A stretch of 64,000 bases of DNA, from NCBI GenBank assembly GCA_038087875.1, contig CM075993.1, forward strand, positions 7,008,001-7,072,000. Reading direction: 5' to 3'. This document shows positions 6,981-49,644 of the stretch, piece after piece. Under the pieces are notes generated by a model that worked only from the letters and a program-made list of their open reading frames with translations, was not told where the DNA came from and made no database searches. Numbering within the stretch: position 1 is the stretch's first letter; every line of letters begins with the position of its first letter. The DNA comes from Malacoraja senta (lineage: Eukaryota). The position numbers were made by a program, and so were the translations under genes.

Positions 6981-7790
6981 TGATAATGGCTATAACCTTT
7001 TGAAACATGGTCTTGTATTTAGTTTGTAACCAAACAGTAATTTGGATAATTGATCAAATAATTTATTTTGACTGTTGATTGAAAGGGAAATTGTGGTTAG
7101 GATAGTATGAAAATCATGCTCTGATAGATCTACAGTTAAAACGTTATGCAAAGGTTGTGGCCCTCGACTTAGTGAGTAGTTCTCTAACAAATTGAATAGC
7201 ATTAGATTTAGTCACTGAATATCAGACAAGTTGTTAGTCACTCACTCAATGAGAGAGGTTTTGCAGTTAACATCAAGTGTTCTCGCTCATGGCATACAGG
7301 AAGTTTGTGGGTTGAAAGTTCAATTTTTAACTGTTTACTTTGTGTTGGTGTAGAAATGATTCTAAAAAACTATTATCCACACAGTACAAAGTAACAAAGA
7401 TATAAGATTAAGAAGTTCAGTTTAGTACCACATAAACTTGATGTTCATGAGGCACCAAGATATGATTTGTAAATTAAGGTAAAGTTAGCAAGATAACTAT
7501 TTTTAAATATTGTTAAATGGGATATAATGTGGTGATGTAATATTTATAATCCCTCAACATGCTGAAGTGATTTTTGTTTGTTGGAAGTTTTTATTACTGC
7601 ATCATTCTTCGTTACCTTCTTCCCAAGTGGCTTCGTCCGTTAATGAAGTGAATAACTGAATTGTACAGGCCAGGCAAATCCTAAATTTTATCCTTGTAGA
7701 TTGACTAGAGCAGCAAATTGATAGGGAAAAATCAAATTGGCCAGGGTTCATTACCCACTGACATTATCGGAAGGATGTGGACATAGACAA

Positions 7791-8781
7791 ATGGATGTGG
7801 ACTGGACTTCCACTGCTATGCTGATGACACCCAGATCTATCTCAGCACCAAGTCCCCCCACCACCCCCCTCTCTCCCATATCAACTCCTGCCTATCAGCC
7901 ATCAAATCTTGGATGCAACTCAACTTCCTTAAATTAAACAGTAGCAAAACAGAATTTCTCCTCATTGGCTCCAAATCAACACTCACTAAAATTAACAACC
8001 CCACTCTCACTATCGACGGCACCACTGTCTCCCCATCTCCTCAGGCACGCAACCTTGGCGTGATCCTTGACTCAACCCTCTCCCTTGAGCCTCACATCCG
8101 CCATGTTGTCAAAACATCATTTTTTTACCTCCGCAACATTGCAAAAATCAGATCGTCTCTTACACCCCCCACTGCTGAAAGACTCATCCATGCCTTCATC
8201 TCCTCCCGACTGGACTACTGTAACTCTCTTCTTTTCGGAATCAATTCCAGCAGCATCAAACGACTCCAACTGGTCCAAAATGCAGCCGCTCGACTCATTA
8301 CCCACACCAAATCCTGGCACCACATCACCCCAGTTCTCAAAGAACTTCACTGGCTTCCCATTTCCCACCGGATCACCTACAAAATCCTGGTCCTCACCTA
8401 CAAAGCCCTCAACAACCTGGCCCCCCCTTATCTCATTGACCTCCTCTCCCCCTACCAACCCTCACAGTCCCTCAGATCCACATCAGCTGGTCTCCTCTCC
8501 ACTCCGAAATCAAACCTCTGCACCTTTGGAGGCAGAGCCTTCTCCAGGGCAGCTCCCAGGCTCTGGAATTCCCTCCCACAACCGGTCCGAAATTCTGAGT
8601 CCCTCACCATCTTCCAGTCCCGCCTCAAGACCCATCTCTTCACGTCTGCATACCCTTAGTCCCATGTTCCCCTCCCCTCTGTCTTACTGCTCTATTTTGT
8701 TTTGTTTATTCCTGACTCTCAATTGTAAAGCGACTTTGAGTCCTGAAAAGCGCTATATAAATAAAATCTATTATTATTATT
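7791..8781 (+). mobile_element. 5'-truncated L2-clade LINE (RT C-terminal half and 3' tail), young
   Basis: FHCYADDTQIY motif (YADD at 7817-7828) is in frame with ORF 7913-8659 (NLGVILDS, SRLDYCNSLL, LQLVQNAAAR, LHWLP). (TTA)n tail. 8-bp TSD ATAGACAA at 7783-7790 and 8782-8789. Confidence 0.92.
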
Positions 8782-27841: not shown

Positions 27842-29066
27842 GCCGCCCGGGCGGCCTTCAGCACCACCATAGCGCCGGCTCCGTCAGACCTCCCGCACGC
27901 TTGCTGCAACATCGGCCTACCGACAGCCCGACCGACAACTCGCAGCACCCACCGGAGGCCCGGCCCAACGCTCACCACCCACCGGAGGCCCGGCCCGACT
28001 GACCGCTCTCACCACCCACCGGAGGCCCGGCCCAACGCTCATCACCCGCTGGAGGCCCGGCCCGACGGACCGCTCTCACCACCTGCCGGAGGCCCGTCCC
28101 GGCCGACCGTTCCCACCACCCATCAGAGGCCCAACAGCCCGACCGATCCTCCAGAGCATCCATCGGCCTACCGACAAGCCCGACTGACCTACTGACTGAC
28201 CCTAATCCTAACCCAAGCTCTATATTTGTTATTTATCATTTCTATTTAACAGTTCACATCATAACTTTATAAAGATAAATCAATTGAAAAACAAAATGAT
28301 CAGCAATGTTCCTTGGAAACCTTGCTATTGTTTTGATGTAATGAGGAGGCAGCCATGATCCCAGGGTTCTCGCTGCCTAGCGACCATAAAACAAAGCGCG
28401 GGATTGGTCAATTTGCGTCCGACCTCATTGTCAAATGTGCATTGATTGGGCAATTACTACTCAGAATTCCCTTTCCTCTCTCCCCCATCCCCCTCCCCAC
28501 TCTTCCCCCTCCATCCACACTCTTCCCCCTCTACCCCCTACCCCATCTCCTCCTCGCCCCCTCCCCCACACCTCTCTCCCCCTCCCCTCCCCCACCCCTC
28601 TATCCTCCATCTCCCTCTCCTCACCCCTCTCCCTCTTCTCCCCCTCCTAATCCCACCCCATCCCTCTCTCCCCCACCCCCCTTCTTCCTACCCCTCTGTC
28701 CTTCCACCACTCCCCCTACCCCTCTCCCTCCCCACTCTTCCACTTCTCTCCCCCTTCCCCCACCCCTCTCTCCCCCTCCCTCCCCGCTCCCCTCTCTCCC
28801 CCATCCCTTCCCCTACCCCTCTGTCCCTCTTCCACCACTCCTCTCCCCCTCCCTCCCCACTCTTCCACTTCTCTCCCCCCTTCCCCCACCCTCTCTCTCT
28901 CCCTCTCTCCCCCCACCCCCTTCCCCTACCCCCTCTTCCACTACCCCCCTCCCCCTCCCTCTCTCTCACTTCCACCACTCCCCCCGCCTGTGTGTTTGGG
29001 GGGTGGTTAGTGTGAGTGCAAACGCGCGTTGGGGAAACAGACCCAACGGGTCTGCACTTGGTCTAG
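27842..29066 (+). mobile_element. Helitron (3' end clear, 5' boundary uncertain) with a GC-rich tandem repeat and a ~0.5-kb pyrimidine tract
   Basis: GCGTTGGGG...CAGACCC-AAC-GGGTCTG-CACTTGGT-CTAG|T ending at 29066 is nearly identical to the end at 3351. No clean A|TC start found. Confidence 0.65.
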
Positions 29067-47110: not shown

Positions 47111-47983
47111 TTAAAAAAAAAAAAAAGAAACTTTGCAGGTGCTCGCAAGTCAGTCTTGTCAGGAAGTACACAGATATCACAGACTCAAAGGGCCGAATGG
47201 CCTACTCCTGCACCTATTTTTATTTTGTTTTTATTTTTTTTAACCATACCTCCATAGTATGGCAATAAATGGCATCAAAGCCATACAAGAATGTTAAGAA
47301 AGAACAGTTACTCTGTGAATGAGAGGGGAATCTAGTTCTGCCATTTGAGAATTAAGAGTATTTAATTGTGAAATGTACAAGGGAATAATGAAATCCATAC
47401 TTGCAGCAGCAGAATAGGCCTGCACCACAATTCACATAGTTTTGAGTGAACACAAATTGCATGAATTAATAACCCCAGTACTAGCCCTGGTTAATTTGTG
47501 GGAACAAACCTGTGTATGAATGCCAGACATTTCAATTTAATAATATTATGGGAGCTCATTCATATGTAAGGATGTCCATAAATCAGGCATTCAGAACATA
47601 GGGTTGACCTGAAATATTTTCAGCAGAAAATTAAGGTGGCTGAATTTATTTGTGCTAAAGGAACAATATAAATCTGTATCTGGTGACTTCGAAATTAGCT
47701 ATGTTGGGTTGTTTCAACCGGCATCATAATCACCAAGTGCGACAGCATAAATACTTGCTACATGCATAATTATACTCTTTGATGTCTTATGACTTCTGAT
47801 TATTACCAGCCATCTGTCTTGTATTAATATTAAAGAATCAATTTGAGTCTCTACTTTCTTATGTAATATTTTTGTGTGTGGGTGGTTCAGTGTGCTATGT
47901 TGCTGTGTGAAAGACTTGTAAGGAGCAGACTTTCTAAACACTCATGATGTTCACAAACCATTATTTCCAATTAAATGCGAGTT

Positions 47984-48122
47984 CTTCTTCTTCTTGCGTA
48001 TGGCGTGCACAGCCTAAAGTTGTAGGACAACTTGTCCTGTTTGATCTTCTGTTTGTGCACGTCAGGTTGATTGCATTTGTCAAAACAGGGTGGACCACGT
48101 GAAGGTTGCAATCTCCCACCCC
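47984..48122 (-). mobile_element. 139-bp non-autonomous retroposon (Ingi/Vingi-like (AAG)n tail) headed by an HDV-like ribozyme
   Basis: 11-bp TSD AAATGC(G/A)AGTT at 47973-47983 and 48123-48133. Minus strand ends CCATACGC(AAG)n. No tRNA A/B boxes. Confidence 0.85.
48069..48122 (-). ncRNA. Minimal HDV-like self-cleaving ribozyme (54 nt)
   Basis: RNA: GGGGUGG GA GAUUGCA ACC UUCACGU GGU CCACCCU GUUUUGA CAAA UGCAAUC. P1 is 7 bp with a G1-U wobble, P2 is 7 bp perfect, P3 is 3 bp with a 7-nt L3 fitting UYCNCGY. Candidate catalytic C at 48079. Confidence 0.82.
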
Positions 48123-49644
48123 AAATGCAAGTTGAATACCATATAGAAGTAAAGGGGAAATTGCTTTGGCTCAATTTGCACCTATTTCCAAACAGCCTTG
48201 TTTAATTTGAAGCCGTTGAGCAATAAAAATTACAATGGCAGATAAAATAGGGATTAAAGTGGCTTAATCCCTATCACTAAACCATTGTTTAGCGTTCGCC
48301 CCTTGTAGAGATGGGGAGGAGACAGAGGGAGGCTGGTTTGCTTGATGAACCGGCTACAATTTCTTGCCATTTTGGGAGAGCAATTGCCATATCAAATGAG
48401 ATGCATCTGGATAGAATGCTTTCTATAGTGGCATTTGTTGAAATTGGTTAGATTTATTGGAGACTTGCAAAACCCTTAGCGTTCTGAGGAAATTGAGGCA
48501 TTATTTTGGCCCTAGCATCAATGTTGTTGGACCATGACAAATTACTTTTGGTATTTACACCCAGGAGCTTGAAACTCTACAGCATCTCGACCTCCATACC
48601 CTTGATAAAGACTAGGGGTGTACTTCACCAAGCTTCTTGAGGTCAATTGCCAGGTGCTTTATTTTGCTGACATTAAGGAAGAGGCTTTAAATAAAAGTCC
48701 AGACCCAAAATGTTATGTAATCTATAACAACCCCTCCCCTGTGTCCCACTAGACTCGCACCCATTTCTCCCAATCTATGTCCTACGTTATCTACGTTCCA
48801 TTCTCTGGCTTCACAATTTGCAACACTTCAATCCTGTTGTCGCTCACATTTTTATCATCACTGGCCTTTATTACAACCATCAGCCCCCCGCCTCACCCCC
48901 CCCCTCACCTGTGTTCACCTATTACCTGCCACACTTTGTCCTGCCCTTCCTTCTCCTCCAGCTTTCTTCCTGCTCTCCCACAATCAGTCTGAAGAAGGGT
49001 CCGTCCCAAATTGTCCCGTTCTGTAGGAATGCTTCCTGACCCACTAAGTTACTCCAGCACATTGTGCCTTTTTCTTGGTTTTCTTTGGTATTGGGGTGAT
49101 AGTGGTCTTCTAAAAGCAAGTGAGAACGTCAGAATGGAATGGAGTGTGTATAAAGAGGCCTGAATTCTCCTGTTAGCTGGTTTGTGCTGGTTCTGATAAT
49201 CGGGTCCCATGTTCTTTTCTAAAACCAGTGCTGAAAGTGAAGTTGTTAAATTTTGTGAAGAATGAGCACTTCATGTTCATAAACCGACCTCATGCTGCCT
49301 TCATTTTTGCCAGTGTTTACGGCTGTAAGTTGCTATGTTAATATTTCTGTCAACTGTCACAAGGTAACTGCAGATTTTGACCAAGAGCAAATGTGCGATT
49401 GGTCTTTCAGCTCTATTGGGCTGACTGGCTTCCTCCTTGAATTTCAGGTTATTTCCTTTAGTTTGAACTTTAACTGGAAAGTTATAAAATATAGTTTTGT
49501 GTTACCATTGTTGCTGAGTTTTCCTGTGAAATACTCCAGCAAGAGAGGTTATTTTACAGTTCTTTCCCACTGGGACATAATGAACTTAAGTGACTGTGTA
49601 AGAAGTTTGCAATGATAAATAATATGTTCTTCAAATGTGAAGTT

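Follow-up and report, generated by a model that had tools for sequence, protein, structure and literature searches.

We analysed a 64,000-nucleotide stretch of the Malacoraja senta genome (assembly GCA_038087875.1, contig CM075993.1, positions 7,008,001 to 7,072,000; hereafter the window), in which a 139-bp retroposon copy lies on the minus strand at 47984-48122, flanked by an 11-bp target-site duplication (TSD). Its first 54 nucleotides form a ribozyme fold of the hepatitis delta virus (HDV) type, here without the P4 helix, and its two ends match those of a long interspersed nuclear element (LINE) found in the same genome. An earlier note, made from the letters of the window, had described P1, P2, P3, L3, P1.1 and a J4/2 cytosine at 48079, together with an 8-bp helix in the 3′ half, an (AAG)n tail and a TSD next to the first base (G1), and we find every one of these in place. 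The anatomy of the copy, given from its 5′ to its 3′ flank and with loci elsewhere cited by our own L numbers, is as follows.

48123-48133, minus strand: 5′ copy of the TSD, 11 bp, directly abutting G1
48069-48122, minus strand: HDV-type nested double pseudoknot without P4, 54 nt, predicted cleavage 5′ of G1 (48122)
48116-48122 with 48087-48093, minus strand: P1, 7 bp, with a G1-U wobble
48107-48113 with 48069-48075, minus strand: P2
48104-48106 with 48094-48096, minus strand: P3, with an L3 of 7 nt
48101 with 48086, minus strand: P1.1, a single C-G pair
48079, minus strand: predicted catalytic cytosine (C44 of the element), first base of J4/2, matched in alignment by the J4/2 C of the two HDV-like models of Rfam
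48044-48122, minus strand: segment from nt 1-79 of the parent LINE (5′ untranslated region, UTR), by local alignment to the full-length copy L271
48054-48061, minus strand: 5′ arm of the long helix, 8 bp, in the LINE 5′UTR just 3′ of the ribozyme
48031-48043, minus strand: 13-nt linker at the deletion junction, aligning to neither LINE end and varying between subfamilies
47984-48030, minus strand: segment from the LINE's 3′-terminal 47 nt (final codons, stop, 3′UTR and tail), 45/47 identical to L263
48014-48016, minus strand: stop codon of the LINE open reading frame (ORF), inside the element
48004-48011, minus strand: 3′ arm of the long helix, in the LINE 3′UTR
47984-47995, minus strand: (AAG)4 tail, at which target-primed reverse transcription presumably starts; parent LINE copies have the same tail
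47973-47983, minus strand: 3′ copy of the TSD, with one mismatch to the 5′ copy

The ribozyme fold

An HDV descriptor scanned over both strands of the window matched once, at this site. With the catalytic C set to A, G or T it found no match in the window, and it found none in 100 composition-matched resampled windows. The HDV-type fold of the window element is not a chance occurrence. Moreover, it shows the marks by which HDV-like ribozymes are recognised, namely nested P1, P1.1, P2 and P3, a C first in J4/2, a U and a G in L3, and a wobble or pair at G1. P4 is absent, with 7 nt between P1 and J4/2 in both the element and its parent LINE; its remnant in the window copy is one pair and a tetraloop. 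Nested folding gave z scores of +0.39 for the ribozyme part and -2.82 for the 3′ half, the ribozyme part not being singled out, as one would expect of a pseudoknot. A search of 1.1 kb around the window copy against Rfam returned no HDV match and three unrelated weak matches. When 86 bases of L049, a copy that has decayed less, were compared with all 4,227 Rfam families, only two matched, both HDV-like: CPEB3_ribozyme (19.3 bits against a cut-off of 35, E 0.0026) and HDV-F-prausnitzii (15.9 bits against 44, E 0.32). Since these scores lie below the cut-offs and the two models (RF00622 and RF02682) both contain P4, the element family files under neither. Neither the 1.1 kb nor the 86 bases gave an Rfam match pointing to a tRNA-, 7SL-, 5S- or small nuclear RNA-derived head.

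The window copy itself carries two CpG changes. The earlier note had guessed that its UUUG and CAAA were decayed forms of UUCG and CGAA, and 100 copies bear this out: 92 have C at position 41; at position 45, 63 have G, 20 have T and 15 have A. A C stands at the catalytic position in 98 of the 100, a sample partly selected on a motif that includes it. The last 8 nt of the 5′ TSD copy can pair with J4/2 and with the 3′ strand of P2; this leader pairing (-7.4 kcal/mol, against -7.7 for native P2) wins in the pseudoknot-free minimum free energy fold. The window copy is a decayed member of its family, probably misfolded by its own 5′ flank and possibly a poor cutter. It had also been argued that the element lies antisense to a host transcript. 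Pfam analysis of 26 of the 49 window ORFs of at least 110 aa, with short exons not sought, found no host domain and one reverse transcriptase (RT) fragment; as no host gene was identified in the window, that argument is without support.

The family and its parent LINE

We searched the whole genome (1.94 Gb, 6,182 contigs) and found at least 3,022 candidate copies in a first-look search, the best 40 of which, when scored, were 93-100% identical. An exact 29-mer of the commoner forms had 1,988 matches and an exact 25-mer of the window's subfamily 386, with no match for either reversed control; the 25-mer set served as an unbiased sample of copies. After hand correction for divergence, the family would number about 6,000. 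When copies were chosen by a 3′-half motif alone, 27/30 started at G1. A tail-motif search gave 24 loci, 16 of which passed a scripted screen; the other eight were three LINE loci, two truncated copies and three copies starting at G1 with internal deletions. TSDs were present at 84 of 102 G1-starting loci (three being repeats of one locus), with a mode of 11-12 bp, compared with 4 of 2,000 mismatched flank pairs. These counts confirm the multi-copy retroposon with 5′ ends at G1, TSDs and an (AAG)n tail that the earlier note had supposed. The base 5′ of G1 is T at 58 of the 102 loci. At the target site, T occupies -2 in 53/84 and a purine the first TSD base in 72/84, the latter partly through ambiguity with the tail.

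Copies are also present in public contigs, where 14 runs under six organism labels hold at least half of 11 sampled element words. Loose contig ends whose flanks are unrelated (agreement ~0.34) accumulate at G1, with 471 in run X1, 388 in X9 and 27 in X19 among the matches listed. Runs X15-X20 hold fewer than five of the sampled words each, and X19 and X20 hold element pieces. Run X20, recorded as a metatranscriptome, has three element-matching contigs, one of them full-length, and is probably host material. A 19-mer had no match in viral contigs; its 11 loci in metagenome contigs lacked the remaining fold and were read as chance.

Among 100 distinct copies, a sample biased towards good matches, we distinguish three subfamilies. 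Copies lie 2.5-3.5% from consensus, in samples with the same bias. Within nt 1-54 the subfamily consensuses differ only in J1/2 (position 8), at a P1 pair that is U-A or U-G (32) and at the nucleotide that follows the catalytic C (45), and all of these changes are compatible with the fold; in nt 55-130 they differ at many sites. Some copies (L121, L122, L124, L126, L129, L050, L208 and L212) have intact TSDs but have lost internal sequence across the ribozyme, in many cases between short repeats. Each ribozyme-deleted form occurs at one site or one duplicated site, and none has been amplified.

The three LINE loci in the tail-motif search are 3′ ends of a LINE that has the element's last 40-odd bases, including the ORF stop codon. 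This LINE has 518 candidate loci in the genome, of which 23 were read. At L271 and L261 the element head stands at the LINE start, with spans of 2.8-3.1 kb. Element nt 2-79 align to the LINE start, with one gap and seven mismatches over the 79 columns of the L271 alignment, and nt 93-139 are the LINE end (45/47 identical at L263). The element's 3′ end is found in 20 of the 23 LINE loci, and L271 has a TSD of 11 bp. Pfam analysis of seven open stretches covering the parent ORF identified an endonuclease (PF14529/PF03372), an RT (PF00078) and a weak zf-RVT; RNase H (PF00075) was found in none of the seven, a Nimb control being positive. The 120 listed homologues of the parent protein are mostly endonuclease-RT proteins of ~1,000 aa, the best of them 71% identical, and RNase H is annotated in none. 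A cluster look-up gave no name for the closest protein, and a comparison of the parent RT with viral contigs gave no relative. Vingi LINEs are described as having a compact single ORF with an apurinic/apyrimidinic endonuclease (APE) and RT and, unlike Ingi, no RNase H (PMC13708176; papers are cited by PMC accession, each for the part of its text that was available). Under this definition the domain architecture supports the parent as a Vingi-type LINE of ~3.1 kb with a single ORF, and the autonomous LINE sharing both ends for which the earlier note had advised a search is found.

Because the LINE head is as short as that of the element, we conclude that P4 was lost in the LINE and that the element inherited its ribozyme. 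Both ends of the element match one LINE, it has been amplified as a unit with TSDs of its own and it contains no ORF, the features of a short internally deleted element (SIDE). At the level of sequence, the element is shown to be a bipartite, non-autonomous LINE derivative composed of LINE nt 1-79, a 13-nt linker and the last 47 nt. The linker looks like a short copy of the A-rich motif before it and may have arisen by duplication. Of the parasite the size of a short interspersed nuclear element (SINE) that had been proposed, the small size stands; a novelty of SINE kind it is not, since both ends align to the LINE. Likewise, the claim that it has no RNA polymerase III promoter holds in that the head is LINE 5′UTR, a loose A/B-box scan being uninformative.

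Other candidates for the parent were rejected. Four patterns for a LINE diverging from the element (6, 7, 6 and 24 matches) found no LINE, their offsets having been misplaced, and returned deleted, truncated or rearranged element copies and chance matches. Nimb-type and other LINEs from a genome search with PF14529 have only the tail in common with the element (20 regions, with one exception). A young Nimb-type LINE with two ORFs (L097-L116) has many intact ORF2 of 1,277 aa and ends in a hairpin and (AAG)n, and the genome has at least two further Nimb-type families. The exception among the 20 regions, at L111:2447-2492, is a truncated element copy, a 3′ fragment that follows immediately on the tail of an unrelated LINE. 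In the parent LINE, 5′ inversions occur in 6 of the 23 loci, three of them restricted to nt ~7-83; the loci named for frequent 5′ inversions, which resemble L1 twin priming, are L256, L260, L264, L268, L269, L270, L273, L275 and L277.

Sister families, the end helix and the CPEB3 ribozyme

An endonuclease search found further Vingi-type families in the genome, at 31-40% identity. Of 12 loci tried, seven satisfied the HDV descriptor, and between them they represent the element's family (A) and families B, C, D and F. It failed on family E and on copies that were truncated or mutated. The four sister families that satisfied it make the same fold from different helix letters, with a P4 region of 26-42 nt as against 7 in the element. 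The J4/2 C with a downstream purine-A, the U and G of L3 and the G1 start are kept across families, bar the single copy of family F seen (L290), which has T at the catalytic site. Comparison of the predicted helices shows that HDV heads covary across Vingi-type families, which gives comparative support for the fold.

The 8-bp helix of the element joins a segment of the LINE 5′UTR to a segment of its 3′UTR. In families C, D and E too, a stretch that lies 6-11 nt beyond P2 could pair with the 3′UTR. Cognate 5′ and 3′ ends of the five families A-E, the 3′ end of family F not having been recovered, rank first of 120 label permutations in windows of 25 and 28 nt. Moreover, the end pairing of families A, C, D and E falls in the top 3% of 396 background windows. 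The helix is lengthened from 8 to 10 bp in two of the three element subfamilies, and the inverted nt ~7-83 piece in three LINE copies is the very module that the element has kept. We infer, with moderate strength, that the region around nt ~79 adjoins the 3′ end during insertion, allowing the jump by which the element would have formed.

The heads of family C score 63.8, 52.6, 40.7, 64.2, 61.3 and 59.7 bits on the Rfam CPEB3 model (cut-off 35). They lie at the following loci.

L282-L284: C8:937500-937920, C4:35489500-35489920, C1:217550310-217550730
L304-L306: C1:86602600-86602860, C2:157111830-157112090, C21:8958020-8958280

Exact matches to the family C core lie just upstream of endonuclease matches (4/4). 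The family is low-copy; its tail is A/AAG and its intact frames are 1,008-1,014 aa long. L282 and L283 carry tandem repeats of the head's first 26 nt, up to six units in L282, and L285 has a 16-nt head duplication; such repeats suggest RT slippage at the pseudoknot. The family C head is a candidate outgroup or source of the CPEB3 ribozyme. That Vingi heads were indeed the source of the mammalian ribozyme, with family C exceeding the cut-off by up to 29 bits, we rate at slightly less than even odds. The human genome has an ancient Vingi trace, X12_LINE (PMC5753468), and the available part of PMC10919898, on retrotransposons, gives no origin for the CPEB3 ribozyme. Against such a descent, similar P3/L3 letters occur in a phage ribozyme (PMC10879173), and convergence is possible.

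Mechanism, alternatives and relatives

Taken together, these data lead us to propose, with a probability of about 0.8, that a Vingi-type LINE gave rise, by internal deletion, to this short element, which is headed by a ribozyme and copied in trans. The HDV-like head would cut 5′ of G1, so that the element would excise itself from a read-through transcript as an RNA starting at G1 with a 5′-OH, and the pseudoknot would protect this uncapped end. The LINE-derived 3′ end and (AAG)n tail would be recognised in trans by the Vingi endonuclease and RT, to which the common ends point, and insertion would follow by target-primed reverse transcription, with the 11-12-bp duplication seen in the copies. 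In the full LINE RNA the stretch after the ribozyme would pair with the 3′UTR and close the RNA end to end. The element may have been born when the RT, having copied ~47 nt of the 3′ end, jumped over this end helix to nt ~79; it would have retained the helix as a local hairpin, and at least three master sequences would then have been amplified to several thousand copies. The broader view, that Vingi RNA consists of an HDV head and a clamp between 5′UTR and 3′UTR, and that the element is its smallest natural form with an active P4-less ribozyme, falls in our estimate a little short of an even chance. All three together, that is, a clamped Vingi RNA, an active minimal ribozyme and a Vingi origin of the CPEB3 ribozyme, we regard as doubtful.

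Several observations weigh against the proposal of a ribozyme-headed Vingi derivative. None of the parent copies examined has an intact ORF, the longest open frames being ~440 aa; and LINE copies are ~90% identical pairwise, so that the element copies look younger and the actual driver may be another. Rfam scores for the element family stay under the cut-off (19.3/35 and 15.9/44 bits). Within the family, two-sided covariation is almost nil, seen in 2/100 copies and confined to a single pair of P1; the core, with all its pairs and conserved bases, is complete in only 53/100. Assembled contigs cannot reveal an RNA start, transcription or cleavage. The end pairing was measured in windows chosen after inspection of the sequences, and family B fails the background-window test; when 40-nt windows were compared with dinucleotide shuffles, only C and E were clear, A was borderline (95-112/2,000) and B and D were not. 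Lastly, a promoter starting at G1 would equally give uniform 5′ ends.

This last point leads to an alternative in which an internal RNA polymerase II promoter in the LINE 5′UTR sets the 5′ end, and in which the P4-less fold cuts slowly or is a vestige, with cleavage of little importance. There is precedent, as Pr77 of L1Tc/NARTc is promoter and ribozyme at once (PMC4035085; PMC3383444) and some well-folded trypanosome SIDER ribozymes are inactive (PMC4035085); in addition P4 has been lost here and the commonest forms have a second G-U wobble in P1. However, P4-less ribozymes of phages are active (PMC10879173), every subfamily change in nt 1-54 respects the fold, and other Vingi-type families keep that fold with their sequence almost wholly changed, which a sequence-specific promoter would not require. 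We consider this explanation unlikely; a dual role as promoter and ribozyme would be compatible with the trans-copied, ribozyme-headed derivative that we favour. The pseudoknot could also have been kept as a nuclease-resistant cap or protein-binding structure and not as a catalyst. An HDV-type fold protects the 5′ ends of R2 template RNA (PMC13708176), and the head inversions and tandem duplications in LINE copies show interaction with the insertion machinery. A cap, however, needs a route to become the 5′ end, and the G1 start is kept across families together with the L3 U and G and the J4/2 C and purine-A (T in L290), which makes this the least likely of the alternatives.

Alternatively, the element may have been born from a Vingi LINE and be copied, now or latterly, by another LINE with an (AAG)n tail, such as Nimb or another Vingi family. 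The Nimb-type LINE, with its hairpin, (AAG)n end and many intact 1,277-aa ORFs, would be equipped for this, as would family C with its A/AAG tail and open frames of 1,008-1,014 aa, given that no parent copy examined is intact. However, the element's ends match the parent family only, Nimb having just the tail in common with it, and the Nimb RT is 32% identical to the parent RT, with 5′ ends that by eye lack a ribozyme. Parent and element, moreover, have the same 3′UTR and a similar TSD (11 bp at L271). We therefore think such a driver very unlikely.

Bipartite LINE derivatives are known, among them NARTc/L1Tc, RIME/ingi and the derivatives of Vingi-1_EE (PMC5786205; PMC4035085). Like the element, NARTc, RIME and the Vingi-1_EE derivatives lack an ORF, carry TSDs and retain nothing but the two ends of a LINE of the Ingi/Vingi group; in NARTc/RIME the 5′ end is also HDV-like, with cleavage at +1 there and predicted here. 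Unlike NARTc/RIME, the element is 139 bp long, has a 54-nt ribozyme without P4 (Pr77 has 77 nt) and an animal host, and combines an (AAG)n tail with a helix between its two LINE-derived halves. The R2 SIDEs of Drosophila (PMC3414825) similarly join an HDV-like head to a LINE 3′ end, with trans mobilisation and cleavage shown. They are 529 bp long, specific to ribosomal DNA and partnered by a restriction-like endonuclease, whereas the element, with about a quarter of that length, is dispersed and its presumed partner is of the APE type. SINEs with tRNA, 7SL or 5S heads resemble it in size, copy number, LINE-derived tail and TSDs; unlike them it has no small-RNA-derived head, its whole head aligning to the LINE 5′UTR.

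Its ribozyme is closest in form to the minimal HDV-like or theta ribozymes (PMC10879173), which also lack P4 and are nested double pseudoknots of ~50-55 nt with C first in J4/2. Nearly 99% of these are in gut phages, often beside tRNAs, and the part of that paper available reports no such P4-less set from its search of eukaryotes (human, mouse and protists). Unlike them, the fold of the element heads an animal retrotransposon with thousands of copies. The mammalian CPEB3 ribozyme (RF00622), the best Rfam match of the element, has the same L3 and a single P1.1 pair; unlike the element it is single-copy, intronic and has P4, and it is stated as not found outside mammals (PMC8233481). Our literature search, which lay outside Repbase, Dfam, patents, supplements and the key Vingi and ribozyme papers, found no description of this family, no Vingi end helix and no link between Vingi and CPEB3; those sources may contain Vingi ribozymes or this family already. 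A bipartite LINE derivative is a known kind of element. What is new is the minimal fold, hitherto known almost entirely from phages; the covarying Vingi heads; the helix between 5′UTR and 3′UTR in four of five families, retained by the element and a possible reason for its birth; and the sister-family head that exceeds the Rfam CPEB3 cut-off.

The element offers a natural minimal template, 139 nt long, for a LINE clade under engineering for RNA-only gene insertion (PMC13708176), and its ribozyme, end helix and tail would be the cis parts sufficient for thousands of full-length insertions. It extends the range of P4-less HDV ribozymes beyond gut phages to an animal, in whose genome three natural variants stand beside thousands of decayed copies. 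That few LINE clades spawn bipartite elements has been called unexplained (PMC5786205), and the end helix suggests a testable reason. Moreover, family C is a candidate for the non-mammalian outgroup that is missing according to the paper on CPEB3 ancestral reconstruction (PMC8233481), and through it a retrotransposon origin of the CPEB3 ribozyme becomes directly testable.

The window has three further features. An RT fragment (PF00078, E 4e-7) at 7787-8659 on the plus strand is the sole Pfam match among the 26 long ORFs scanned. A 36-bp tandem array of 11.6 units occupies 849-1323, and 27926-28984 contains a GC-rich 67/37-bp repeat with a long pyrimidine-rich one after it.

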